DNA of 40,114 bases, taken from contig JYFJ02004355.1 of assembly GCA_000934665.2 (NCBI GenBank), positions 1 to 40,114 of the forward strand, given 5' to 3'. Below, one piece after another: positions 3,265 through 39,859 of the stretch (positions are counted from its first letter, which is position 1; each line of letters begins with the position of its first letter). A program made the position numbers and the translations under genes. The stretch comes from Catajapyx aquilonaris. Its lineage: Eukaryota. The notes below the pieces were generated by a model that saw only the letters and a program-made list of their open reading frames with translations, made no database searches and had not been told where the DNA came from.

Positions 3265-4356
3265 TAGTCCGGGACCTAAGCGCAAAATACAGACCGAACT
3301 TTGTACTTTGTGATAAGAAGGTGCCACCTGGTATCAACATTTCAAAAAGAACTGTCCCGTCGAGCGGGTAGCCCACACGTCGGGATGAACGGAACGGGTT
3401 CCATTCATCCTGAAGTGTGGGCTACCCTCTCGACGGGACAGTTCTTTTTGAAATGTTGATACACATGTTCCCTAGACCTATATGAGTCATTTCAGAGTTG
3501 GCGGCACCTGATCGGCCCCTTAGGTCACGAGTAATTATTCGGTGTTGCCAACTCTAGCTATTAAAGCTAACCTAAGCGTTTTTAACTTTGCCTTTTGTGA
3601 TAAGAAGGTACCACTTGGCACATAACTTCCCTAGGCCAATAGGAGCCATTTGAGAGATGGCGGCATCTGATCGGCCCCTTAGGTCAGGAGTTATGAGGCG
3701 TTGTCAAGAATGCCAACCCATGAGGCGCAAAACATGGACATGTCCTAAAAGTCGGATAAAACCGCATGAGAATGGCAGAAAATGACACAGATCCACTCTG
3801 CCGATGTATTACAAGGTACTGAGGTGACACCTGTCCATAATGGACCCTGCTGATTATAGTGAAACCCTGTCAATTTATTAAGAAATTCAATGGAAACTGA
3901 GGTATATGCAGAGGGCATGATTTTTTTTTTCATTTTGACATAGGGGACCGATCAGGTGCCGCCAACTCTCACATGAATCCTAAAGGCCTAGAAAACGTAT
4001 GTATTACCAAGTGCAAAGTTAAAACGCTTAGGTCCCGGACCAGGTTGGCAACACCGCGTAACTTGTGACCTAAGTGGCCGATCAGATGCCTCCAACTCTG
4101 AAATGGCTCATATATACCTAAGTAACATGCGTGCCAAGTAGCACCTTATCACAAAATGCAAAGTTAAAAACTGTCAAAAACGCTTAGGTTAGGTTAGCTC
4201 GAGTTGGCAACACCGTATTACTCGTGACCTAAGGAGCCGATCAGGTGCCGCCAACTCTGAAATGGCTCCTATAGGCCCAGGGAACATGTGTGCCAAGTGG
4301 CACCTTCTTATATCTTATCACAAAGTGCAAAGTTAAAACACTCAGGGCCCGGACTA
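3265..4356. mobile_element. Foldback element whose inverted arms are built from ~150 bp tandem sub-repeats
   Basis: Unit ...GTGATAAGAAGGTGCCAC...GAGTTGGCGGCACCTGATCGGCCCCTTAGGTCACGAG... occurs twice forward (3300-3700) and ~2.5 times inverted (3940-4356). Termini TAGTCCGGGACCT / AGGGCCCGGACTA. Confidence 0.8.
3334..3459. mobile_element. 126-bp near-perfect hairpin MITE with TA target duplication, nested in the foldback element
   Basis: TCAACATTTCAAAAAGAACTGTCCCGTCGAG...CTCGACGGGACAGTTCTTTTTGAAATGTTGA, flanked by TA/TA. The other sub-repeat copies lack it. Confidence 0.9.
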
Positions 4357-4421
4357 AGACGATCCCAGGCAAACATTCGCCAACTACAGTAGCTTCATTA
4401 CATTTAGATATATGGGATATA

Positions 4422-5910
4422 CACGGTGAAGGGAAACTCGCGCCCAATTGCCAGGTAGACTGAATGGCTGATAGTACTCGCAAAACTAATATAGGGATGT
4501 GCAATTAGTTTTTGGCTCCTTTGCGTAGTTAATGCGTCTATGGTGCCCTTAACCTGTTGAGTACTGGGTTTTCTTTTCAAGTGCAATACCCACGCCCCCC
4601 CCCCCCTTATTTCGGAAATGCGAATAGGAGTTAGACTACTTGAAATACCTGTTACTTGAAGTAAATTACTTGAAGTAACTTACTTGAAATAACAATTACT
4701 TGAAACAACTGTTACTTGAAACAACTGTTACTTGAAACAACTGTTACTTGAAACAACTGTTACTTGAAATAACAGTTACTTGAAACAACAGTTACTTGAA
4801 ATAACAATTACTTGAAATGCATGCGAACAAGGGCACGCGCAATGCGCAACTCTCAGGACAAAGGTCCGTCGTCGGACCAGTGGAAATAACAGCTACTTTG
4901 CAATAACAGTTGAAATAGCTGCAACTCAGTCGCAGTTACAGTTATTAAGCTATTTTCGACTCAGTAGCAGCTAATGCGATTCCGCTATGACGTTATTCTA
5001 CTATTTTGGTCGTGATGTTGGTACACTACAGCGTGCCCCTACCCCTGCCACAGTTAGTCTCTCCCATTACTTCTCACTTTTTTCAATATTTTCAGTGCTC
5101 GAATATAGCAGAATATTTATAGCTGCTCCTGAGTTGCAATTATTTTCAGTAACTGTAATTTAAATAACCGTCATTGCAAAGTAGATGTTATTTCTACTAC
5201 TCCCGACGAGGGGAGAAGATCCGCGCTGATAGGGGCCCATCTCTGATTGGCCGGATAGCTTCCAAGATCCTCTCAACCATGGCTAAGGTCTGGTCTGGTC
5301 ACTCGCTCTTACCGCCTGACGCCAGAGATTTGTCTCTCAGGCACCAGGGGGCAGCAGGATCCATCTTACCTCGCTGATTCAAGCCACTCAAGCAGTGCGT
5401 GATAGTTGAACTACCAACCACGAGATGGAATGGCAAGAGCAGCTTAAAAGTCATTGGCGCCTTTTTTATGCGAAGAAATGAGCGCGCAAGTAGCAAACCA
5501 TCATATGATGGCCGTAGGCCCTGGCCGGGCACGTCATGCTCGGCCATCATATGACGGTCGTCGCCCTCAACATGTTAAAGTGTAGAGGGCCGGATGGTAC
5601 AATACGAGGTAAAAATGACGAAGTCCACGGGTGTCGTACCAGGATTCTTGCTTTGACGGGATTTGATCGCCTTTTGCACATGGGCGATGTGTTACGGGAC
5701 CAAGGCAAGGGACCGAAGCAGACCGGAGGCCCTCGAACTGACTTTTTGCTTCTTAGAATCAGGCGGAACGGATGTGACGTCACGAAACTTTGTCGGTGCC
5801 GTACGTATTAACTACGCAACGGAGCCCAAAACTAATTGCACATCCCTATATTAGTTTTACGAGTGATAGCAGTCTACCTGGCGATTTGGCGCAAGTTTCC
5901 TTTCACCCTG
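4422..5910. mobile_element. Non-autonomous Tc1/mariner-type element with ~115 bp TIRs and internal cargo
   Basis: TA|CACGGTGAAGGGAAACT...GCGTAGTTAAT (4422-4537) is inverted at 5803-5910 (...AGTTTCCTTTCACCCTG|TA). Confidence 0.8.
4626..5202. mobile_element. MITE-like insert with a 16-bp tandem array (CTGTTACTTGAAACAA)n, 4637-4817, and related inverted termini
   Basis: About 11 tandem units. 4879-4930 (GGAAATAACAGCTACTTTGCAAT...GCAACTCAG) is inverted at 5129-5199. Confidence 0.6.
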
Positions 5911-8763
5911 TATAATAAAAATAAAGCTATAAACACAGTACGTTATACATGAGCTAATTGCAGTGGGATAGAGAATTATATGCCAGACTTATAAAATATG
6001 GCTGGATAATACGGTCTTCCTACCCGTTGAAAGCTGGAATGAGCTACTCTCACTGAATGACTCCTGTGGGATTGCGAATGAAATTCTCTGCTTTTGCAGC
6101 AACAATGAGAACAGCAGTTTTACTCCTTCTCTACCTCTCCTCCTCTACCTCTCCTTCTCCCCCTTCTCCTCTCTCCCCTTCCTCGTCCGAGATGAAGTTG
6201 AAAGAGTTCAGTCCCATGGGAAATGTGACTTCAAAATGGATCATAAGTTTATGTCCTTCAATCTCGGCCTTAGCTTCTTGCCTTATTTTCTTACTGGTTA
6301 GGGGATAGTAGGAGACCTCAAAGGCCCATATACAGTATATGGTAGCAATTCAGTGAAATGATGGACATGAGTGCACGGCTATAGGACTTCTTAAACGCTC
6401 ACCTCGACACTTTTGTCATTGATGCGGTACACTATAAGCACACATGTTATGAACATGCCTCAGCTGTGCTGCCGCTAACAAGATTATACGCATTTGCAAG
6501 CGGTGCTCTTGAGTAATGAATCTCGTCCAATCTACTGTACTTTCACTGATTAATTATCGATCTCTGTAAGTCCGTGCTCCGGGAAACTACCGTACATCGA
6601 ATTTGTGAGAGGCCGGCTTAAAATGGAGAGTGCCACAAAAATAGGACAAAAGAATATGCAGCGAACGCAGGATGTCATATACACGGCATGTAATTTTACC
6701 TAATGCTCTTGTTATTAACTGGGTGATAAAGTACAAGTCAATTTGCCCCTGATCAGCACATTTAGGACCACTCACTTCTTGATGTTATGGGTCAGTTGGA
6801 CTAAAAATTTGTCAATTATTTGCATTTAGCTTTTTTTGTGATCCTTCAATCCAATTAGGTGAATAGACGCAATAACCAACCACAAATGATTATCATTTAC
6901 CTAGTTATTTTAATGAGCGTATTGGCACCGAGAATAAATTATATGAAAAAACCCTGAGTACTTTTGGCTCCATAATGAGGTGGGAACACATTTCATCATT
7001 ACGGGACTAAAGCTGGAATGGCGTCAGTAAATCGAGTTTCGTGCAACTTCCTTGAAACTGCCTTAGTAGGTTTTACCACTGCACAGTAGGAGAGGGATTA
7101 GCAAATAACCCGAAGATATTGCGGTTAGGGCCTTACTGCACTCGAGCAGCTTATACATTTTTAAAACCAGGATAAGCCTATAGCGCATTATTTGATCCCA
7201 AAGAAGTGCAGATGAAGGAGAAACGCCCAACATGAGTTTGAACATGTGACATTTTGCAAGGTGACTCATATATTGACCTAGTTTGTGTGGACTCGCGTCC
7301 TCCAAGACATCTTCCCAGGGAAATGCATGAGTATCGCAATTGTCTCATCAATAATGCAACACCATTGCCATGACCACGGAAAAATACAACCGAATTTTGG
7401 TTCGAGATCAGTATCGAAAATCAGAGACCATCCTCGTGACATGCGAGAATTGAACACGGTAATCTTATACCATTTACACACAAAAAAAGGTAGGTGGGAA
7501 TATTTTGCTCGTCGTTGGGAAACGAAAATGTGTTGAGGCGGCTGACACATGGTACGGAAGACAATATTCATTATTTTCCAATGCGGCGTTAGGGACTACT
7601 GTCGCCTAGGTGACGAATGCGCAATATGAGCACCCCCACCCTCCCTTCCCACGTTTCCATTTTGTCCCCCCTGTCTCCCCGTCCTTCCCCACCCAACACA
7701 CACACAGACCTTACCACAGCACCCTTGGCACCTAACGTATTTTGCCAATATTCCATGCTGCAGGAGTTGGATAATGCGATTTGAACAGTGTCGCCTTTAG
7801 CGTCATATAATGAACCTCATCCATATAGAAGCTGGCAAACAATAATAAAATCTTCCACCTGAATTCTGGATATTACACGCCTATTCGAAGCAAACTGAGG
7901 CGACAGATCAGGGTTGTGTATGACATGGTTGTTCTGTTATACATTTTGGCTCATTTTGTTAATCACATTAATAATGTCGCAGGAGCCAGAATAGTCTAAG
8001 GGGAGACATGTTCTCCTATACATGTAAGTAAGTGATTAAGGGGCCTTTTTAAAAAGAGTTACTTCTGAACGAATAGGTGCTCGACAGTGATCGATATGAA
8101 GGTAGCATGTACTGTTGGCAGGAAGGGTGCCAAGTTTCTGTAGCATCTTCGTGACGTCATGTGACCAGCATACAGCTTTGCGCAGCAAGGTGGGCGACAG
8201 GTTCACCTGAGTGTCTATATCACTATACAGTAGGTGGTCGGAAATGATCGTGTCACACTAAAAGAGTCATAACAACAATTGCGAAGTCAAATGTACTGTA
8301 ATTTTGCACATCCACAAGCCTTTGCGCTTTGAAACAGCACCTCAAAGACAGTGCAGAAATTCAAGGCAAACACTTAGAAGTATTGGGCGGAAGAATAGTA
8401 GGCCTGTCGTTAGTATTTCCCGTGGATTTGCCAAGCGGAACGACTATCAGTGACGTAATTAGATTTCAATGGCGTCTGAAGTGCAAGCATCTGCAAAATT
8501 GCGACCTGCAAGGTCTTTCTTGAATGGGTGCTTTTGATTTCTCGTAGGCGGTGTTTCCGCCTGACTCATGCTGAGATTAACTTGCACAAAGAGAAGACAG
8601 TTTAGACTAAAGAAAACGAACCATTAAATATCTAGGATCTATCCATGAATAACGTTATTCACGACACGTGTTTCAACTTGTTCAAGAGACTCGTCTATGC
8701 TGTATAGAGAGGTGTGATCTTGAGAGCACAGAAGGCGTAAAATAATGAGATTATGGCGTCAAA

Positions 8764-9123
8764 CAGGATGGTGACAAAGGTGCGCACTTCCGCTCGTACC
8801 TAGAGCAAGTTATTCTAAGGTGTAATTACCTAGTTGACTTGGACGATTTCGTATCCATTACGGAGATAATGGCATGCTAAGGTTATACACGTAAGCAAAA
8901 GCAATGGGGGTCATCCTGTGTATCAGGTGACACATGTCGCAAGGGAGGTTGTGGGTTGGAATACCATCAGCAGGAAGACCCCTATTACGTACGTCTGTAA
9001 CCTTATCATGCCATTATCTCCGTAATGGATACGAAATCGCCAAAATCATCTAAGGTAATTTCGTCTTAAAATATCTTAAGAAACCGGATCCGACAGGAAG
9101 TGCGCACATTTGTCATCACCCTG
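8764..9123. mobile_element. Tc1/mariner-like MITE with ~150 bp TIRs
   Basis: CAGGATGGTGACAAAGGTGCGCACTTCC...CGATTTCGTATCCATTACGGAGATAATGGCATG is inverted as ...CATGCCATTATCTCCGTAATGGATACGAAATCG...GGAAGTGCGCACATTTGTCATCACCCTG. Confidence 0.8.
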
Positions 9124-9266
9124 CATATTGGCGATTCGGTGGGTTTTCCTAGCATCCTAGGCAAATGATTATTGGACTAATTTGTTTCTGAATATATGGT
9201 ACGTAATTTGAGAACCATTTTGAGTCCGATTCTCCAGCCTATAACGTCCTCTACTGATATGTCATA

Positions 9267-10119
9267 CAGTAAAACTTATATTTAAGTCGAATATCCATGG
9301 AACCGGAAAAAAACATCGAGTTATAGAAGATTCGAGTTAAAGAAGTTTGGATTTTTTAAAGCACAGAACTCTATAAGGAAGCCTACCTTTATATCCAGCG
9401 ACTAAAGGTGTTCAAAACTTTAAAATACCTGTAACTATCACACTTACAATGTTCCTCATCGTTTTGTTGTAAAAAAAATCTCCGTTATGGACATTTGCCT
9501 ACTCTTAGATTCAAGGATTCAATTGTCCCAATCGAGTAAAACACTTCTTTCGATACTTCTGGTAGACGGAGATCAGGAAATTGAGCCTTTCTGTAAATGT
9601 GGCCTACTCTCTACCCTTCGGCTGGGAAATTCGAAAATTTTCGTACTCACCATCATGAACTTCGACTTAGGGAGGCTTTATAATTGATATTAGGGAGGTT
9701 GGCCCCTGCATTGTCCCTTCAACCTCCAAGGATATGGAAGGAAGGAAGGAACCGGCTGTGGCCTATATTATATACGGAAGGGATCCCGGAATCATCCTAG
9801 GAAGACCGTGGAAAACCACAGAAAGCCACGGTCAGGATCGTCGGCCCCGGGATTCGAACCCAGGACCTCCCGATTAGCAGTCGGACGCCTTATCCACCAT
9901 GCCAACCTTCTTTGGTACTTAGGGAGACTGAAAATGCATTGATATCCCATCGTAAGGCCCTGCCTGCACTTCGAGTTATGGAGAACTTCGAGTTATAGAA
10001 ATTCGAGTTAGGGAAGTTTATTTCCTATCATTTTACATTGTGACCAACCAAGCTCATCATTTTCTTCGACTTATAGAGAACTTCGACTTAGGGAAGTTCG
10101 ACTTATAGAAGTTTTACTG
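9267..10119. mobile_element. pogo/Tigger-like MITE with TA TSD
   Basis: TA|CAGTAAAACTT...AAGTCGAA and TTCGACTTATAGAAGTTTTACTG|TA, with subterminal TTCGA(G/C)TTA repeats. Confidence 0.85.
9675..9916 (-). mobile_element. tRNA-derived SINE (family A, copy 1) nested in the pogo-like MITE
   Basis: Minus-strand A box TGGCATGGTGG and B box GGTTCGAATCC. 10-bp TSD ACTTAGGGAG at 9665-9674 and 9917-9926. Highly similar to 14671-14905. Confidence 0.9.
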
Positions 10120-13100
10120 TATTTATTTAAAAAAATTGCTGAGTAAGCCGCGAGCCGCATGCGGGCACAAAATTTACTATAGGCGAAAATATCCCGTATT
10201 ATACTTTCAGCCTCAGTCGAAGCGCAGATTAAAATATTAAACAGAAAGTAAATTTAAAAACTAGGGCATTTCAACAAATTAACCACACTTACTTGAACAG
10301 TGGGTCAGATATAGACTTGGTTATGCCTTGAGCACAATCGGTAGCTTTTGCCCTAAGTAACCTATTCAAGCCGAATCTGTTGGCCTGTCGGTTAAACATG
10401 TTGTCAACTGGATGACAGATCATAAAACTCCGCAGAAAATATACTAGGTCGACCTGGTTTTGCGACTACGTAAATAATAAAACAGGCCATAACACTCTTT
10501 TCCTGTCCAAACAGCCCTATTGCACCTTTAAAGTAATGCCTTCCAAAACTATGAAGTGTAAACCCATAATCATTATCAACAAGAATATCCCGAAATACAA
10601 ACATATAGAAACTAACCAGCACAATCGAGCATGAAATGTCAGCAAGCTGACTTATTAAGCCCCCACGTTAGAGCAATAGGCACTCTTTTGAATCCTAACT
10701 GGAGGAGGATAATATAGACACTGTGGGGTCAAAGTTGACAATCGTGCTGGAAATTCCAGCACAAACGTAGTGCTCACAGCAGGGATCGCACATGTAGAAT
10801 ATTTGAATCTGTAGTTTTAAAAAAAATCACTCTTTGACATCACCTTTTGCTTCCCCCTACACAAAGGCAAGAGCCTGTGCTGATGCTGCACATGGCGGCA
10901 CATCTTCACTGTAGTTATGTTTTTTTGAAAGAAAAAGTGTTGTGGGTCCCCAGCAGCGACAGCCAGCCTGCAGTCATAGCAGGAGTGCCGAGGAAGCTCG
11001 GGCCAAGAGTAGCTTCCTGCTGTCCCGCCCTTATCGATCTAGTAGAAAGAGATATATTTACCACGAAGGGGGAGGGAAAGAGGAGGCTCTCGCCTTATTG
11101 CAGAAACCTTTCATTCGCAGAGATGCTGGATGCAGAGGGAGGAAAAAGAAGCCACAGATGTCCTCAAACTTGGCTGAAAAGAATATATGCTTTTTTTTGT
11201 CCAAAAGTGTCACCTGGCGGCAGATAAGTTGACCGAAAGGAAGATGGTAGCTTGTAAAATTGCGTTGTGCGTATTGGAACACTACTTTATTTGTTATTTG
11301 CAGTTGTGCGAATATACATGCTCAATAGCTTGGAAACCGCGGCTTTAAACCATTCTGTAGAAAGATATTTACCTTCCGTCATAAAGTGCAACGAGGTTTA
11401 AGTTAGCATGCCAAGGCGCGCTCGTAGGTTTTATATCGTCATGAAATGCTCATATCCACATAGATGCATTCCATTTTAGTACCTGCTAGTAGGATGGTAC
11501 GTATTTATGATGTGGATGCGTTCCAAGCACATTTAGTCAATAATGCACAGCTTAAATATTTCAGTTCGTGCTTGTCCGCGTCACCTACAAACTGACGAGA
11601 GAGGCTGCAAGTAACCAGGCGGGAATAACAAGACGGATTTATCCACGCTTCTGCTCGTTGCGTTATGGATGCTGCACTGCATTGCAGCTATACTTGCCTT
11701 TGACAACATGCTTGGCAAACACGGTGCACAGTTTAACTATAATTGCTAATAAACCTGTTGATACCCACGTATACGGTTGAATTCCAGAGATTGTAAATCA
11801 CGTGAGGTCAATCGGCTCGTTTGTTCATAATGAGGGTTTGAAAGTGATATATAACCTATCGTATAGACAGACTTGAGTACGTTACAAAGTGGGCGTTAAA
11901 AAAGTGGAAAAACTTACAAGTGAGATGTTCTTTCTGTGCGAGAACGATTTTTTTAAATGAGCACAGTAGGGACTCTAAGCCTGCTTTATACTAGGAAAGT
12001 ATGTTTCATTTTTGAAATGAAAGTGTGCAGTTCTTTCAAAAGTTGGTAGCAGTCACTTAACGGAAATACGGATCGCTTAAGAAGGAAGTTAAGAAACGTA
12101 CTTTTCGACTATCGATTTTTTACTACCCCTTGAAAAAAAAAAAATCTTCTGCCCACTTCTCCATGATGTAGAAAAAGAGGAGAACTATATAGAAATTAAT
12201 CTGATTGAATGCATATTATACAGCCATGATTGGGGCGTATAGCAAGGATATCAAGTAACTTTACAAATTACAATAGCTGCATTATCTACCTCTATTTAGG
12301 TCAGAGCATCCTTCTTCATACTGTAAAGTACTTCTATTGGCCATTTTTAAAAAAGAGGTCTTATAAGCACACTTTGTCTGTTATTGAAGTCAAAAACACT
12401 GATATAATGCGGGAACTAAAAGTAAATTTGAACTGTTGTTTTTATGCCTTGGGATATTAAATAGAAAGACCTGAAGTGCAAAACAATATATTAGGGTCAC
12501 ATTTTGGGCAAAATTGAGTTATATATAGATATCCCCGCATCAGCAAGTCTTGGAATGGTACGTTCTTGTGGTAGAGTGAATTTTTTAATAAGCTTAGAAT
12601 ATACGGTATTGTAGATTGAGTGGGTGAGAATTAAAAGGGCACAAGATCACCTCTTTTTTCAAAATGAAGGTGCTGGTTGGTAAATATAGAAAAGATGAAA
12701 AAGATGAAGAGGCAGCAGTGAATAGGGTGATTATGTTTTAAATCCCATTGAAGCTAATAGAAACCTCCAGCACTTCAAGAAAGGGAGCCTATTCAGATAG
12801 AAAAGAGTTCACATCCGGCTTGGTTATTGTTCTAAAAGGGGCGGAGAGAGAATGAAGCACCAGGTGATCAGGTCTGAAGGTAAAAAGAATCTTGACTGGA
12901 AAGTTTAGAAATAGACTGCTTATATCCGTTTAGCGGCGGTTTTTTAAACCCTTCTGTGAAGTTGAGAGAAGTGGATTTGGGCCCTTTTCATTTTCACAGA
13001 CTCAATTACAGTCCTCTTCAGAGAAATTTTAGAAAAAATAATAAATCTCGTAAGAGAAACAGAATCTTTAAATGTAATAATAATTCATACCCCGTTATCA

Positions 13101-13180: not shown

Positions 13181-13296
13181 GATAGGATAGGGACGGAAGG
13201 AAGCGGCTGTGGCCTATTGATTACGGAAACAACTCCGGAATTTTCCTGGAAGGACCGTGGGAAACCACAGAAAACCACGTTCAGAGTTGCCGGCCA
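13181..13296 (-). mobile_element. Diverged partial copy of SINE family A (body only)
   Basis: GGAAGGAAGCGGCTGTGGCCTA...CCGTGGGAAACCACAGAAAACCACG matches the bodies of the two full copies. Confidence 0.75.
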
Positions 13297-14670: not shown

Positions 14671-14905
14671 TTTATACAGTAATTGATATTGGGGAGGTTG
14701 GCCCAGCATTGCCTTTAAACCTCCAAGGATAGGGAAGGAAGGAAGCGGCTGTGGCCTATTATACGGAATCGACCCCAGAATTATCCTAGAAAGACCGTGG
14801 AAAACCACAGACAACCACGGTCAGGATCGTCGGCCCCGGGATTCGAACCCAGGACCTCCCGATTAGCAGTCGGACGCCTTATCCACCATGCCACCCTGCT
14901 TCGGT
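14671..14905 (-). mobile_element. tRNA-derived SINE (family A, copy 2)
   Basis: Same A and B boxes as copy 1. Perfect 13-bp TSD GGCATGACGTTAC at 14658-14670 and 14906-14918. Confidence 0.92.
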
Positions 14906-32398: not shown

Positions 32399-33287
32399 AT
32401 CAATATGTCGCTATCTTAAAAATTCTGAGTGTAGATAAACATATATTATCTGAAATATCAAGAAGACAGCTTTCACACAATTCAGTTCATATTTTGAGTA
32501 CCTATATCATGAAAATAACAAACGGAAATCAGCATATGGCACCACATCCAACTACAATCTTTCTTCAGTACCTTTCCGAGCCAGCCCCAGAAGTGTGAAA
32601 AGAATTGTGTAGATTAATTTCACAAATTGCACACTGTAAATCTAACAAATGTGTCTAGAATCAATAAACATGTTAAAATGCCAATTACACTTCAATTTTA
32701 TCCTGCTGCGCATGAAAGTTACCAGTAATTTTCTACTGTCAACATGGCCGCATGCTCGAGTGCTTAAAGTGTGAAAATTGGCCGCGGTGTGCGCCGTGCG
32801 GGCCATCCCCAGGCACTCTTTGCCTAGGACCGCATGCCTAGGACCTAGGACCTTATCTTTGCCCGTCTTTGCCGGATGAACAGCGCAGCCTGCGGCCAAT
32901 ATCGAAACTGATATGGAAGTGGAAAAAGGCTTTGGAAAGAGACACCAGTGCACTCTCCATACCCAACGTTGCCAAATCTGGTATCTTTCAGTACTTCAAT
33001 GGCGTTTGTGGCCTGCCTGCCTGACAGCGTGTGGGCTCCTCTCTCATTTGCAGTCCACTTTCGGCATACCTGAAACCTGAAACTGACTTTTTTTTTTAAA
33101 TAAAAAAAGGAGGTAATGTGTACAGAAATTATAATAATGGGAGAGTTATGCTAATAGAGCGATATATTGGATTTGATGCAAAAATTCAGGACAAACCTGC
33201 GGGTCATGTTGGGAATCCGGCACCCAGATTTGTGTCAGCTTGGACATCTCATGACTTGAAGGATGTCCATTTTTTTGTTGTCTAGAA

Positions 33288-35508
33288 ATGGGTAGTCTGA
33301 ACTGCCCCCTCTGCTGCGGAGCATCGTTTGAAACGCTGCAGCTCCTGAGTGACCACCTGGAGTTGCAGGCGACCAAGACGGTCAGGTGTCCCATTTGCCA
33401 GCTGATGCTGACGTCAGTTGTGGACCTGGCCTCCCATGTGAAGGCGCATTGCATCCTCAGCATGGAGGCCACACCCAATGTCATGCTTGTCCAGGAGCCT
33501 GAGACTCCTCCATCAACTTCCCTGGATCATTCCTACGTGTCTGATAATAATCGACAGCACTCCCAAGTAAGGCATGCTGCTTACATTAATTTCAAGGATG
33601 TGTTACACATGTGCATCTTCATTTGTTGTGTCTCATTTGGTGAAATGCCTTTTTGCAGATCGTTGAGCAAAAAGAGTCAGCTGGGGATGATGGGGTGAAG
33701 AAGTGTCCTCATTGCGACAGATGTTTTCGGACTGCCAGCAAGCTCAAGAGTCATATAGTGCTGCACAGTGGGGCACGGCCATTCAAGTGCACAAGATGCA
33801 ACAAGTTCTTTGCAAGACTGGAACAGCTGCAAGTTCACATTGCATCTCACAGCACTAGCTCCCAAGTCTCACGAGAAGTGGCACGGAAACGTAAAAATAC
33901 CAGGCAAGAATAACAAATGACTCTTCATGGCAAGTTGCAGGAAGTCATGTTAGCATTACTTGCAGATGGGGAGAAATGTCACAACTTGCTTTGTCTCATC
34001 CCCATTGCAACTTGCATGGGTACCCAATTTATTGGTCTGATAATGTATAATAACAACATCGTATTAATAATTCTAATAATTCTCAACAGGAAAGCCTCGT
34101 CCGCACCACGCATGGCCGCATGTGGGAAGTGTGGAAAGATTTTAAAGTGCGAGTCTCTTCATCAGCATGAGCAGCGGCATGCTTGCAGTGCCTTGAAATC
34201 ACGCAGAGACAAAGGCACCTCTGCACCTACAGAAGAGTTGCAGCCCCATAAATGCCACATGTGTCCCAAGGCATACAGCAGCAAGACTCGCCTGTCGTAC
34301 CACCTCCTCACCCACACTGGGGAGCGTCCCTTTCAATGCAGCTACTGTGGGAAGTGCTTTCGAGATTTACAGTCTCTTCGATCTCATGAGCGGATACACA
34401 CTGGAGAGCAACCATACATGTGTTCTAAGTGTGGAAAATGCTTTCGCACAGCATCACAAGTAAGGTCTTTATAATACATAAGAAGTGCATTACATTAACG
34501 AAGTCAATTTTATTTTTTTAAAATTGATCATTCAGTCTTATCCCTGCATGTTATTTCCTCATAAATCAGTTACTTGCAGAGTAAGACGTTTTGTATAATG
34601 TTAAGGCCATTTCACAAAAAAAAGTCGCGCGGCAAACGGCGCGCGTTGCGGCATATTTCTTATTTATATTTATTATTGCCAATAATTAATAACAATTGGC
34701 GGGGCACGCGCTTGTCGCTTCCGCAAAATCTTTTTGTGTTTTGGCCTTCAGTCTTCATTACTTCTGCGACAGGTGACTTCACACAGGCGTGTCCATGTGA
34801 GGGGTAAAACTGCATCATACTGTTGTCAGCCCTGTGGGAAGACATATCGCAGCTATTCAGGCTACTCATACCATCTGAGACAACATGGCGAGGGAATGAT
34901 ATACACTTGCAGTAAATGCAACATTGACTTCAGGACCTTGGCAAAGTTGACACGTCACAAACGGCTTCATTCGAGGGCGTTTACCTGCGGGGTCTGCAAG
35001 AGGTTGTTCTACACGCTGCAAGAAACACACCAGCACTTGCTCTCACACACTGCCGGTAACGTTAGGAAAAAAATGGTTTATCTTAGTATTAAGAAGTACA
35101 GCTTTTAATTATTCTCTTCTTTATGAAAATACAGGAAAGCTTCGACAAGTGTGTGATGTGTGTGGAGAAGCTTACAACCATCCAGCAGCACTTCGCAGTC
35201 ACAAGCAAATACATGAAGGAGAAGAAGAAAGTGTGGTTGAAGAAGAAGAGGAAGAGGAGGAGCATGAGGCAACTGGGGAGAGGATCGAGGACATACCATT
35301 GCAGAATTTTGTTGGAGTTGTTGGAGGGGTGGACTTGGTAAAGGAAGTGGGAGGCGGGAGTTCCATGGACGACGGTGGTGTTGTGGAAGTCATTGAAGAG
35401 GATAATGAGCAGCAAGTGGTCGTAGTGGAAGACCTTCTGCTCGACTTTGCAACAGGACTGGTGTCTGATCCTAACCACCTCTTGGTTGTCACAGAAAATG
35501 CCACATAA
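33288..35508 (+). CDS. Multi-C2H2 zinc-finger protein (~12 fingers, acidic C-terminus), 516 aa
   Basis: Exons 33288-33566, 33659-33903 (GC donor), 34090-34459, 34773-35055, 35135-35508. HTGERPF and HTGEQPY linkers. N-terminal CPLCCGASF module. Confidence 0.92.
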
Positions 35509-35525
35509 TGTTCCTACTCTTTACA

Positions 35526-35674
35526 TAATGAAGGAGGAAACGAGAGAACGATCTGACGCCATCGTTCCTTCCATTGTTGCTTTTTGATGACACTGTTTAC
35601 CCATCTTGTTATGTGGGGGTATTTACATGGAAGCCTCGATGGCGTCAGATCGCTCTCTCATTTTCCGTACATTA
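35526..35674. repeat. Imperfect inverted repeat just 3' of the ZF stop codon
   Basis: GAGAGAACGATCTGACGCCATCG..CTTCCAT / ATGGAAG..CGATGGCGTCAGATCGCTCTCTC. Confidence 0.75.
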
Positions 35675-35724
35675 CTTTTTTTCATTGTTTCCTTTTGTAT
35701 TTTAATATGTGGAAGCCTGGGAAA

Positions 35725-36234
35725 CCCTTTCATTCCTGAATTTTTTGGGCCGTTTCTTCTCTTTTTGAAAAAAATTTGTAGTAGGAGTGATATAATGAAA
35801 AACAATATTCTTCATTATTTATCATTTTTACTCGTGGTGGTCCTTCGGAATGTAAAAATGCCGAAAACATTCCCCTACTGGGTGTTCCAGAAAAAATTTT
35901 TAAATGCAATTAACTTTAAATGCAATTAAATTAATTTAAATTTTTAAAATCACTACAAAATTGTTACGATGGTTGCAAAATAATACTAAAACACTGCACT
36001 ATGAGAAATTCCTAAGAGTCCAGACTTATGGGACACCCTGTAATTACGCGGCCGGGTGGGGGGTTGTTTACCTTTCAAGGGCGCGAGCAAAATATAACAA
36101 TCCGACTTTGTGGGTGCTGAGTCACCATCCACTAGATGGCACAAGAAGTTTGACCCACAAAGTTTGCCTTCTGCATGCGAACGCTTTGCCGCCAGATTAA
36201 TTGTTGCCATATGGCAACAGTGGGAATGAAAGGG
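35725..36234. mobile_element. piggyBac-like MITE, with a nested mariner-like MITE at 35878-36040
   Basis: CCCTTTCATTCC ... GGAATGAAAGGG|TTAA (left TTAA degenerate as GAAA). Inner TA|CTGGGTGTTCCAGAA ... TTATGGGACACCCTG|TA. Confidence 0.6.
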
Positions 36235-36294
36235 TTAAAGTGCACATGATCTGACTTGTGAGTCATATTTCATGCATAATTTCTGTGGGATAAG

Positions 36295-37201
36295 TTACCA
36301 TGTACCATATCGTACCTGAATACTGCCTTGCATTGTTTTGGAACAGACGTTGGGGTTTCTTTTCCTAACGTCACTCAATGTTCCCGTTTGGACACCTTTT
36401 GGGATGCAAAGAGGAGGGCTCGTTTGAGTGCGCCTATTCACTGTCTCCTTTATGTCGCAGTTACACTGGACAGATGCATTTTTAGTCATAATTGCGACTT
36501 GCACATGGACACTTTTGCATTTCTTTTCAAGATGTGCTGTGTTCTACAAGGAGCAAAAAGAAGAAACCAATGTCAGAACGTGCTATTGAGTCTGTAAATA
36601 AACATCACCTGCACCTGTGTGGAGGTCGACTCATCATGACTGGATATTCTTGTACCATAACTCTCAGATGTGTTCTGAAATAAGTAGGTGCACTTGGAAA
36701 TTTGTATGTGCGAAATGTACTTTTGAGTCTGTAAATAAACATCACCTGTACCTGTGTGGAGGTCGACTCATCATGAGTGGATATTCTTGTACCATAACTC
36801 TCAGATGTGTTCTGAAATAAGTAGGTGCACTTGGAAATTTGTATGTGCGAAATATGTACAGTAGGTACATCTGCTAATGCCTCTACCTGCAGTTTCGGAA
36901 CGGCGTTGGGCTTCAGTCTCCGTGTCTGCTGGTCTGGTCTAAAGGGAAATATAGACTGCCTTTCAAAGTGATCTAGACACACCCGATGATGTGCCTTGGG
37001 TGCGTACGTTGGCGGCAAATTCACCGATGCTCTCCATTGTTGCATCAAGTCTTCATTTTCACGGGGGAATGAGAAGAAATGGACACCCTGACCACTTGAC
37101 TGACGACGCCCACAAACTACGCAAATGCGTCCTACCGGAGGATTCCCGATAGGGGCAGCTCCTTGCTCAGCCATGTATGTGTCCGGTCGTCGTTTCGCCA
37201 T
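36295..37201 (-). CDS. THAP-domain protein with a low-complexity tail of TQT-like motifs (~231 aa)
   Basis: THAP signature CVVC...FFSFP...W...RVCLDHF...LKPNAVP. Phase-0 exons 37201-36887, 36811-36746, 36674-36609, 36543-36295 with GT-AG boundaries. Confidence 0.8.
36586..36853. repeat. 137-bp tandem duplication comprising one 66-nt exon plus intron
   Basis: 36586-36716 is nearly identical to 36723-36853 (two substitutions inside the exon). Confidence 0.95.
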
Positions 37202-37738
37202 CCACCCGAGTGAGGCGCCACTTACGGCGAGTCGGCGATTGACACGCCTCCCGTGACGTCACTCCGCAAGCGGGGGATACGAATGCTGCCAACTTTGACC
37301 TTCTCTCCGGGCCTTACGGTTCTGTTTTGAGACAAACGGATTTTTGCGTTGGAGTCAGGATTTTTTGTCTGATTTTTAGACATCAACTTGTCTTCAGACT
37401 GGAGTGTCCCTTTAAGCAAATTGCAGCCAGCAGCAGCATTTTATTCCGATTTGAAACCCGCGCCATTTAGCCGCCTGATGGCGCTGCTGTTCGACAATTG
37501 TGAAATACGAAGCACCCTCACTCGGCACAGCGAGAGGGGGAGTGAGTTGCAGTCCCATTCGTCGACGCCTCACTCTTCATCTCTCCATTTCCCATTCTCC
37601 ATATTTCCATTTGGGATTTCGCTGCCGGTCTCCCCTTGGCGCCCACTACGATACATATCTTCCCCACAGTCCACCCTACGTACGTACAATCTCTGGCTGT
37701 CAGCGGCCCACAGCCAAAGCAAGCTGGAGGAAAGAACC
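37202..37738. promoter_or_regulatory. Bidirectional promoter between the THAP gene and the second ZF gene
   Basis: Head-to-head ATGs are 538 bp apart. CpG-rich, with a perfect CRE palindrome GTGACGTCAC at 37253-37262. Confidence 0.55.
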
Positions 37739-38919
37739 ATGTCCTGTGGCGCCCACCTCCTGATTTGCCCCTTCTGCTGCGGCAGCCAGTTCAAGAGCAT
37801 CTCTGAAATGGTGGCCCACCTGGAGTGCTGGTCCTTCTACGTGGACTGCCCCTTCTGCCCCTTGAGAAACCTCGGGGGGCCAAAGAAGCTGGCGCAGCAC
37901 ATCAAGGAAACACACCTCAAAGAGACTGAGCCCACCTATGTGAAGATGCCAACCACGTTAGCTCCTGGAAGAATGGCCAGTGTGGTAGTGCAGCAGTCTG
38001 GAGATTTCTTGGTGATCGACAAGGTATATGACAAGAAAAATCCTCCCTGGTATTTAATAATTAGAGTATTAATTAATACTGTGTGATTTTTGCACATGTT
38101 TCAGGTGATACAGGAGGTGGCACACCAAGAGGTGGTTGTTGGGGAAGTTATGGTGGTTGCAGACGTGATGGGAGAAGTGTCCCATTTGCAGGAGGAGAAG
38201 GCTGAAGACATGGGAACGGACGTAGCAGGAGGAGGAGGTGTAGAAAGCGAAGGAGTTGCAGAAGGAGCAGTTGCAGAAAAAGAAGGAGTTGTAGAAGGTG
38301 AAGGAGACTTCATCTGCACATCATGTGGATTGCTGGTGGTAGATATTGAACAGCACCATAAGGATGCACATCCAGGAGAGGAAATGGTCACTGGTATTAT
38401 CACAGAAGGAGCGGATTCATCAGAAGGTATGACGACCTGGCTGCCAATAAGTAGCCATCTTATGGTCACATTTATTTGCACACAGTTCACAGGTTATAAC
38501 TTTTTCTTATAAATTTTTCAGCTCCTGAGAGAAGGAGTAGTAAGCGCACATATGATGGTCATTATGTATGTCGCACATGCTGGGCCAGCTTCAAGCAGCG
38601 ACTGGACCTGCACCACCACTACAAAGTTTGCTGCAAGAGCAACAGTTCTGCACAAGCACCTCAGCCACCAGGTGCCAAACCACCCAGAGGAAAATTCATA
38701 TGTGACGAGTGTGGGCATATGTACAACCTGTCCTATCGCAAAATGCACATGAAGATGCATGAGGGAGACCCATCTTACACTTGTCCTGTTTGCAAAAAGG
38801 GATTTTTCTCCAGGTCTAATCTCAACAATCACCTCAAAATGCATGCAGCAGAGTCATCAGAAGCAGCTAATGCTGTGGTTGCATTGATTGTCAGTGAAGA
38901 ATTCGACAAAAACAAGTAG
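37739..38919 (+). CDS. C2H2 zinc-finger protein, 334 aa, paralogue of the 33288 gene
   Basis: Exons 37739-38023, 38105-38426, 38522-38919 are in phase. N-terminal CPFCCGSQF module, acidic linker, C-terminal fingers (CDECG..H..H, CPVCKKGF..H..H). AATAAA at 39481. Confidence 0.9.
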
Positions 38920-39859
38920 TACTCATTGTACTCTCATCATACTGCCAGTGATTTAAAGGATGTAATTAGTTATCTACCAATGATAACTCCCATTAAATAT
39001 GATATTTCAGTAGTTAAGATTTCCAACCTGATGTGGTACAGTACTTGCTGATCATGCTGTTATGTCTGTGCAAATTTTCCCTTAGGTACTGGTATGCACT
39101 GTTTTATGGTCAGGTCTTTGCCCTTGACACCCCAAGAAAACTGGTCCCACAGCCTGGAATTGTTGAGGGTGGGAGTGGTTTCTTCTTTAAAAAAACAATA
39201 GTTTTCCTCACAGTTGATAACCCATATTGGCACTATCATTATTATTAAGATTGTGGTTACTCCCCAAAACTTGTAAGGTTTCCTGCCCTATGATCTTGAA
39301 CCAAAAGATGTTGATTCTGGACCTGTTTACTTCAAAAAAATCAAGTGCATTATGATTATTATTGATTGATTGAATGATGACGTACAAAATCAAGAAGGAG
39401 GCACTCAACATATGTTATCGAAACTTACTTTCTTATTTATTGTACTGATTTTACATTGTCATATTGTACCTTTAAATGTAAATAAAAAGAACAGAAATCA
39501 GGGAGCAACCTGAGTAATCTGCCTTGAGCAATATTTGGGGATGCGGGCAGGAGGATTTTTACTTTTACCCCTTATTTATGTACCCTCATTATGTTCACTG
39601 CACGCGTGGACAAGCTGGCTTTCCTGGGTGTCATACTTTGTAAGGCACTGCAGCCTGAAGTATGTGCCCATTACATGCGGAAGTGTGATTGACCAAGGCA
39701 GTGAAACACATCACAACGAATGGATGTTTCCGTTTGAAAATAAAAATGGCACCTTAGGCATGTAGTAATTGCAACTCTGGAATCCATGCAATGTAGAATT
39801 TATTAATATGGAAATAATAAGTTACTGGCAGGGCCTTGTTTATATTGGGAGAGCACGTG

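Follow-up and report, generated by a model that had tools for sequence, protein, structure and literature searches.

Minus-strand exons of a probable, possibly decaying TOPOVIBL gene in Catajapyx aquilonaris

Introduction

TOPOVIBL (TOP6BL) is the non-catalytic B subunit which binds SPO11 and connects this enzyme with REC114 so that meiotic double-strand breaks can form. The mouse gene is Gm960 and the human gene C11orf80. In all cases in which TOPOVIBL is present and has been tested, meiotic breaks require it (PMC12642689); repeated shortening or loss of the protein across animals has been reported (PMC9665070). A preliminary description of a Catajapyx aquilonaris contig had proposed an unannotated, vertebrate-like TOPOVIBL orthologue within the window, by which we mean the whole stretch of 40,114 nucleotides analysed here. 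The question is therefore whether these exons belong to TOPOVIBL, and in what state the gene is found.

Results

A chain of small exons on the minus strand

Among the 13 peptide motifs listed in that description, 11 are present as written, on the minus strand and in the order given. Their literal matches are:

11382, minus strand: MTE
11174, minus strand: AKFEDICGFFFLPL
10978, minus strand: YDCRLAVAAGD
10677, minus strand: IALTW
10453, minus strand: VDLVYFLRSFMICHPVDNMF
7830, minus strand: FYMDEVHY
7314, minus strand: EDVLED
7236, minus strand: LMLGVSPSSALL
near 6316, minus strand: SYYPL core
6259, minus strand: EGHKLMIHFEVTF
6073, minus strand: NPTGVI

The remaining two are produced by splicing only: VEVSYYPL spans the junction 6402/6316, and the N before ESTVDWTRF is supplied by a micro-exon (6800-6776). 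The exons and neighbouring elements, with percentiles for their splice sites, are as follows:

11373..11382, minus strand: exon 1, 10 nt; ATG at 11382; phase-1 donor, 99th percentile
11094..11173, minus strand: exon 2; acceptor 96th, donor 97th percentile; top ab initio exon
10844..11038, minus strand: exon 3, ending at 10910 or 10844; acceptor 98th percentile
10617..10698, minus strand: exon 4, 82 nt, with IALTW; acceptor 99th, donor 96th percentile
10293..10465, minus strand: exon 5, FLR..HP helix; acceptor 97th, donor 99th percentile
7832..10292, minus strand: intron 5, 2461 nt; contains inverted-repeat elements as well as a SINE-like copy of tRNA origin
7715..7831, minus strand: exon 6, putative linker region; acceptor 99th, donor 7714 99th, donor 7736 69th percentile
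7137..7343, minus strand: exon 7, putative first transducer strands; GAG acceptor, 40th percentile of background AGs; donor 94th percentile
7003..7078, minus strand: exon 8, preceded by a 58-nt intron; acceptor 99th, donor 7002 71st percentile
6800-6776, minus strand: micro-exon, alternative to exon 8, 25 nt; phases fit; donor 98th percentile
6490..6545, minus strand: exon 9, VDWTRF at 6535-6518; donor 6489 15th percentile
6403..6431, minus strand: exon 10, 29 nt; donor 100th, acceptor 79th percentile; chosen ab initio
6054..6316, minus strand: exon 11, putative last beta-strands, a repeat, then the NPTGVI piece; GAG acceptor, 33rd percentile of background AGs
4418..5914, no strand assigned: element whose termini are inverted repeats (I6 and I11), immediately following the last recognised exon

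The minus-strand exon chain is genuine. Both splice sites lie at or above the 94th percentile in five of ten introns. Over the 1116 nt of exons the coding score is 6.8 bits, whereas the null median is -44.9 and 1 of 300 null draws is as high; here the exons had been picked in advance, and the null DNA is rich in repeats. The chain found ab initio scores 47.9. Five non-genic controls range over 6.6-30.1, but antisense strands of real genes reach 65.8 and 91.1. An alternative exon at 10548-10463 was rejected, its coding score being poorer than that of 10658-10617. The splice sites had been described as mostly canonical, which is true of the GT/AG dinucleotides but hides two GAG acceptors, three weak donors (7736, 7002 and 6489) and a GC donor at 11093, behind which the intron is 55 nt long. 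For exon 3, the donor at 10843 scores 2.9 and that at 10909 is at the 70th percentile. Although the chain is real, good sites do not join all of its motifs in a single open frame, because of a frameshift in exon 4, a TAG and the poor sites.

Resemblance to TOPOVIBL

The spliced models were compared by hand with the mouse TOPOVIBL reference sequence (PMC11347134 Fig. S1). This comparison suggests that the locus is probably TOPOVIBL (TOP6BL) by origin, which is the most likely reading, and that its exons are most likely the present or former coding sequence for the front two thirds of the protein. DWTRF does fall at the WKxY position as had been noticed: VDWTRF occupies residues 285-290 of the spliced models where mouse has IDWKKY (W280, WOC/WKxY). 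The colinearity with vertebrate TOP6BL is borne out in part, as eight hand-scored blocks follow the mouse order but none is significant alone. Between the start codon and residue 345, their offset against mouse, taken by hand, does not exceed ~25 residues. The highest score (29) belongs to the FLR..H helix of exon 5, which resembles the last helix of a GHKL(-like) domain and has its counterpart in mouse 126-137; the VDWTRF block of exon 9 scores 24, the SPSSAL block of exon 7 scores 21 against mouse 221-229, and a Cys block in exon 3, aligned with mouse C53, scores 16. From the D of the W motif to the last beta-strand we count 47 residues by hand in the candidate and in mouse alike.

Two hallmark patterns, for motifs to which the literature or the TopoVIB set draws attention, were written after the locus had been seen. 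The pattern [IV]DWxx[YF] has its sole match among the window's six frames in exon 9, and the end-helix pattern of exon 5 occurs stop-free once in the same six frames; the W match is stop-free too, and the two follow each other in the right order in the chain. Among 70 prokaryotic TopoVIB sequences the patterns match 11 and 32, respectively. For a single protein to have both motifs close to where they are expected, the probability is at most 6e-5, before alternative splice models are considered.

It is rather unlikely, yet conceivable, that the exons come from a different gene, fast-evolving or dead, and that the TOPOVIBL likeness consists of short chance blocks obtained with fitted exons and frames. 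The best block has a gapped E of ~4, and within the 25-residue band 0.25 chance blocks are expected at a score of at least 29 and 1.2 at a score of at least 24. Off-register blocks in the same locus are equally good, with scores of 27 (7370-7334) and 17+16 (7780-7724). A mid-gene register using IALSN at 7780 and GNGVALL near 7370 was rejected, as it needs two frameshifts and a nonexistent acceptor and breaks the spacing, and it shows that such blocks arise easily. Against this explanation, TOP6BL, unlike prokaryotic TopoVIB, agrees with the candidate in the two hallmark motifs, in the order of these motifs, in how far they lie from the start codon and in the 47-residue spacing behind the W motif; moreover, conserved GHKL families such as MutL would be expected to match Pfam.

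Database and profile searches

A profile match to TOP6BL or TopoVIB, proposed earlier as the test of the assignment, was obtained for none of the single-frame or read-through pieces searched. Pfam gave no TOP6BL-type family in 90 single frames, which are short pieces, and no family at all in 7 read-through frames, which are padded with intron; stray matches in 7 of the 90 frames (E 0.01-0.24) were all unrelated. PDB sequence searches returned weak unrelated chains or none, word searches gave 33 and 2 candidates of which none scored, and an atlas search produced no usable match (three matches below 0.8). A TopoVIB profile made from 70 of 113 prokaryotic loci (length 450-760 kept) scored 21.5 against a 95th percentile of 23.1 in 150 shuffles, which is not significant; HMM and hhalign comparisons gave single-comparison E values of 0.036-0.044 with negative bit scores and an hhalign probability of 0.7%. 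The same profile detected no ATP-binding boxes (N, G1, G2). An H2TH domain was not found, and the locus does not qualify as a canonical TopoVIB.

Among 1.84 billion protein representatives there was no TOPOVIBL match, and the sole database match, to the 3' part, was a protein in which the cathepsin propeptide (I29) is repeated six times (E 1.1e-5 for six stretches taken together; Crammer itself matched at E 0.11), which speaks for a different gene. A Crammer-like cathepsin propeptide inhibitor was nevertheless rejected and the match taken as chance, as ~40 residues of one exon align out of a full domain of ~59, the best single stretch reaches 25.8 bits and Pfam I29 is silent on the same frame.

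Lesions in the exon chain

In exon 4, IALTW and the next strand lie in different frames across a five-G run (10666-10662), and inclusion of this exon leads to a stop at codon 93. When exon 4 is skipped, a stop-free 10-exon reading of 368 codons is obtained with no repair, in which the W motif starts at residue 285. This open reading also requires both GAG acceptors (7343 and 6316), and since the strong donor of exon 6 lies behind an in-frame stop, it requires the weak donor at 7736. In exon 11, an in-frame TAG (6133-6131) stands between EGHKLMIHFEVTF and NPTGVI, within a 14-bp GA-rich tandem repeat (6123-6183).

The neighbouring gene TFIP11, present in the same window, is intact. It encodes 837 residues stop-free, each of its eight introns pairs a GT donor with a CAG or TAG acceptor, its splice sites are all at or above the 84th percentile, and its best database match has 47% identity; an exact-sequence look-up of a TFIP11 exon gave no match. 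Per 100 nt, the candidate has a coding score of 0.6 bits and TFIP11, excluded from the training, one of 5.7, with the caveat that fast-evolving genes score low too and two of nine real training pieces fall below zero. Other points against decay are the stop-free reading obtained when exon 4 is skipped and the position of the exon 4 frameshift in a homopolymer, the usual site of assembly errors. Taken as a descendant of TOPOVIBL, this copy may well be decaying, a reading that we put forward tentatively. Pseudogenisation of top6bl has been documented in a nematode (PMC9665070).

The SPO11-binding part and a minor intron

The transducer of TOPOVIBL ends in three helices that bind SPO11, described as the most conserved feature of the protein (PMC9665070). 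No such helix was found in 6050-1 by three-frame reading, short patterns and an insensitive exon scan, and a weak three-helix likeness, seen at 6090-5992 in a different frame, does not exceed chance. No candidate for the C-terminal REC114-binding helix, a short and divergent feature, was found in the window. With its lesions and with the three-helix part not found, "unannotated orthologue" is too strong a name for this locus.

Could the gene still be a working one? Its breaks would then be assembly errors or unusual splicing, with SPO11-binding exons that are too divergent or lie beyond the window start, past which a TOPOVIBL gene could extend; alternatively, a globular half of 368 residues would be expressed and the helical half encoded separately. 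We consider this unlikely. The stop-free reading described above is available to such a gene, the NPTGVI piece ends at a donor (6053, 83rd percentile) as though further exons came next, and a split form exists in yeast as Rec102 and Rec104. Moreover, TOP6BL is reported among the fastest-evolving meiotic genes (PMC12642689), and human and mouse genes contain an AT-AC minor intron (PMC6717393), so that unusual splice sites have a precedent in TOP6BL. However, no exon end of the candidate carries an exact minor-spliceosome donor; the sole one within the gene span (9735) lies inside the SINE-like copy, and a scan of minor-intron donors and branch sites with mismatches found none convincing. A working gene must also skip an exon with strong sites on both sides and use two GAG acceptors, of which TFIP11 has none in eight. 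Furthermore, the 13 in-phase candidate exons in 6050-1 show no resemblance to the three helices, and nine of them have negative coding scores.

Discussion

The decay of a TOPOVIBL gene could have proceeded as follows. The ancestral locus would have been a gene for TOPOVIBL (TOP6BL), in which exon 4 acquired a one-base shift, splice sites eroded around exons 6-7, 9 and 11, and expansion of the tandem repeat introduced a stop. Mobile elements may have come to occupy the place expected for the SPO11-binding exons. Given these lesions and elements, a protein able to join SPO11 would probably no longer be made. The partner of SPO11 might then be another copy, a three-helix-only form, or no TOPOVIBL at all, and each of these states is described in animals.

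More speculatively, the locus could be a snapshot of the TOPOVIBL front being lost in a deep-branching arthropod lineage. The globular part (~mouse 1-385) would have been severed from the SPO11-binding helices by the stop and the mobile elements, and would be decaying or kept as a separate protein of 368 residues, with SPO11 served by a helices-only gene or by REC114 alone. We regard this as improbable; literature searches on TOPOVIBL with insects or pseudogenes brought up no such arthropod intermediate.

An arthropod TOPOVIBL as such is already reported (PMC9665070), and a vertebrate-like arthropod form with a GHKL-like domain is implied by the legend of Fig. 5 in the same source. An intact long form in this poorly sampled lineage would be one more instance of a known pattern. 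A decaying or split form, if confirmed, would carry greater weight because it would be an intermediate of TOPOVIBL loss and raise the question of the SPO11 partner. At present, the locus is valuable mostly as a lead.

Comparison with known systems

The candidate is similar to mouse TOPOVIBL in its many small exons, in the block order and rough spacing over mouse residues 1-335, in the place of the W motif (285-290 against 280 in mouse) and in that no ATP-binding boxes are detected. It differs in that its similarity is below significance, in its reading-frame and splice lesions, and in that no SPO11-binding helices, REC114-binding tail or exact AT-AC donor were detected.

Within arthropods, TOPOVIBL is reported in Insecta and Chelicerata, with the GHKL-like domain described as absent in some species only (PMC9665070). 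The arthropod TOPOVIBL of Brinkmeier et al. 2022 and Drosophila Mei-P22 would share clade and role with the candidate; reduced arthropod forms retain the three helices and the tail only (PMC9665070), whereas the candidate locus shows the opposite part.

Archaeal and bacterial TopoVIB show a short resemblance to the candidate at the GHKL end helix and the VDW..Y motif, but their consensus spacing behind the W motif is 18 residues as compared to 47 in the candidate, and there is no profile match. The decaying top6bl of D. dipsaci and the lost top6bl of Caenorhabditis provide precedents for pseudogenisation and loss. In D. dipsaci spo11 decays as well, and in C. elegans DSB-1/REC114 has been proposed as the replacement for top6bl.

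Exon chain and the TFIP11 control

An 11-exon model could be built on the minus strand from the ATG at 11382 down to 6054, where the preliminary description had proposed a gene for TOPOVIBL (TOP6BL). Eleven of the 13 peptide motifs claimed for it are present as written and in order, the other two only across splice junctions; the chain is partly confirmed, and the damage in it had gone unreported. When splice sites were ranked by a simple score among every GT and AG on the minus strand, both sites lay at or above the 94th percentile with agreeing phases in five of ten introns, and in a sixth if donor 10843 is used. Under a codon-position model trained on the neighbouring genes, the exons score 6.8 bits over 1116 nt, a value reached in 1 of 300 draws of equal-length stop-free stretches from nearby non-coding DNA (median -44.9). 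Of the eight best exons from an unguided scan, five are in the model frame, two overlap the model in a different frame and one lies outside it.

The best unguided chain at the candidate scores 47.9. Five non-genic controls score less (6.6-30.1), whereas antisense strands of real genes score more (65.8 and 91.1) and TFIP11, which was in the training set, far more (357.5). Because of these splice-site, coding and unguided-scan scores, we conclude that a gene exists, or once existed, at this locus, with weak signal. Inside intron 5, the stretch 8257-8063 (minus) is stop-free and mildly coding-like with usable splice sites; its phases misfit the flanking exons.

Neighbours of the candidate are a BTB zinc-finger gene, TFIP11 and a zinc-finger cluster. 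TFIP11 (29634-23044, minus; nine exons, 837 residues) is intact with no internal stops and served as control for splice sites and coding signal; all eight introns pair a GT donor with a CAG or TAG acceptor, the shortest being 77 nt. Upstream of the candidate on the same strand lies 18207-16790, presumably a BTB and C2H2 zinc-finger gene judging by its motifs. An ORF at 37258-36605 (minus) runs antisense inside the zinc-finger gene cluster (33000-39000) and has a Cys/His pattern that we take to be THAP-like.

Comparison with mouse TOPOVIBL

The mouse sequence (supplementary Fig. S1 of PMC11347134) was compared by eye in ungapped blocks under BLOSUM62; numbering of its tryptophan (WOC/WKxY) motif is fixed by K281 and K282 in that source.

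Hand blocks shared with mouse TOPOVIBL (mouse residues, score)
C53: 16
C106: 12
126-137: 29
221-229: 21
265-272: 19
278-283: 24
303-306: 14
322-334: 18

These blocks follow the mouse order, and from the start codon onwards their offset relative to mouse stays within about 25 residues. The aspartate preceding the tryptophan is 47 residues away from the last strand in candidate and mouse alike, as against 18 in the prokaryotic TopoVIB consensus. Patterns for the tryptophan motif and the GHKL end helix, composed after the locus was seen, each have one stop-free match when all six frames of the window are taken together, and both matches fall in the candidate; they match 11 and 32 of 70 TopoVIB proteins, respectively. 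The human protein seems to us a somewhat better fit than mouse, an impression left out of the count.

Order and spacing therefore lend the TOPOVIBL proposal partial support, whereas no block or profile match is significant: the best block reaches a gapped E near 4, and chance blocks expected per size within the 25-residue band number from 0.25 to 30 or more. An unrelated gene is an unlikely alternative, which draws on these sub-threshold scores and on off-register blocks of similar size (27, and 17 plus 16) that the locus yields in its other frames and that we regard as misleading chance likenesses. On balance, the candidate is probably of TOPOVIBL origin.

Damage and the open reading

Exon 4 comprises 82 nt between two strong splice sites, yet a run of five G separates its IALTW part from the following strand, which is in another frame; a stop at codon 93 results if the exon is included. 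In exon 6 the strong donor 7714 sits behind an in-frame stop, and therefore an open reading needs the weak donor 7736. Exons 7 and 11 both follow a GAG acceptor, a form used by fewer than about 1% of introns; the exon 9 donor ranks at the 15th percentile. Ahead of the last claimed motif, a 14-bp GA-rich tandem repeat (3.4-3.8 copies) contains an in-frame TAG at 6133-6131; this region is followed directly by a 1.5-kb element that has terminal inverted repeats.

A decaying copy from which a useful protein is no longer made is the likeliest reading, and we hold it tentatively. We consider it unlikely that the gene works, with errors in the assembly and some exons beyond the window, or that a globular half is expressed; in favour of this reading, ten exons stay open without repair for 368 codons, ending at the same TAG, provided that exon 4 is left out, the GC donor is allowed and so are both GAG acceptors.

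Other repeats in the window
9700-9910, 13190-13295 and 14690-14893: tRNA-derived SINE-like repeat, three copies, two with Rfam tRNA matches
1309-1810: hairpin-type element, nearly perfect; its 175-nt arms are 98% complementary, and a second pair lies inside
4637-4839: 16-bp tandem array within the 1.5-kb inverted-repeat element
3300-4350: repeats of about 160 bp, clustered and present in either orientation

Search for a SPO11-binding part and a minor intron

Likeness to mouse ends at about residue 335-370, and the candidate would encode only the globular part of TOPOVIBL. In the complex that makes meiotic breaks, TOPOVIBL is the B-like subunit. It is described as having lost ATP-driven dimerisation (PMC11922745), as binding DNA partly via the WOC motif, and as holding SPO11 by three helices, the family's most conserved feature, and REC114 by its tail (PMC9665070). 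No three-helix exon was found in 6050-1, where nine of 13 in-phase candidates score negative for coding and none is alike; such exons may sit past the window start. A 51-codon frame at 6144-5992 (minus), which shares sequence with the end of exon 11 but is read in a different frame, lies where the first SPO11-binding helices are expected; its hand scores of 13, 17 and 18 against mouse 390-420 are at chance level.

An AT-AC minor intron is described for this gene in human and mouse (PMC6717393); no exact minor donor occurs at candidate exon ends. The SINE-like copy at 9735 contains the exact donor word by chance.

Database and profile searches

Among 90 single frames and seven frames read through stops, none matched a related Pfam family. 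Searches of PDB sequences, of 1.84 billion representatives and of the atlas, together with two word-based protein searches, likewise produced no relevant match. The anticipated profile match also failed to appear: the spliced models went unrecognised by a TopoVIB profile built from 70 prokaryotic proteins, which were selected from 113 loci (hhalign 21.5; 95th percentile of 150 shuffles, 23.1). These blanks are weak evidence against TOPOVIBL, since the Pfam queries were unspliced frames and the spliced models were compared with a prokaryotic profile. The best of 11 matches to TFIP11 in the protein collection, a beetle protein, is only 47% identical; the animal thus lacks a close relative there, its lineage is poorly sampled, and close relatives of a fast-evolving gene are not to be expected.

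The sole significant match is a protein with six I29 repeats; its score adds up several weak stretches, which cover roughly 40 residues in exon 11. The likeness between this part of the exon (6349-6134, minus) and cathepsin-propeptide inhibitor (I29, Crammer) domains, in their second half, we judge to be chance.

Relation to known TOPOVIBL proteins

That the candidate represents an intermediate in repeated loss of the TOPOVIBL front part is quite improbable. Decay or loss of TOPOVIBL is known in nematodes (PMC9665070). The legend of Fig. 5 in the same paper reports TOPOVIBL in Insecta and Chelicerata, with the GHKL-like domain absent only in some species, and thus a long arthropod form would at best extend a known family.
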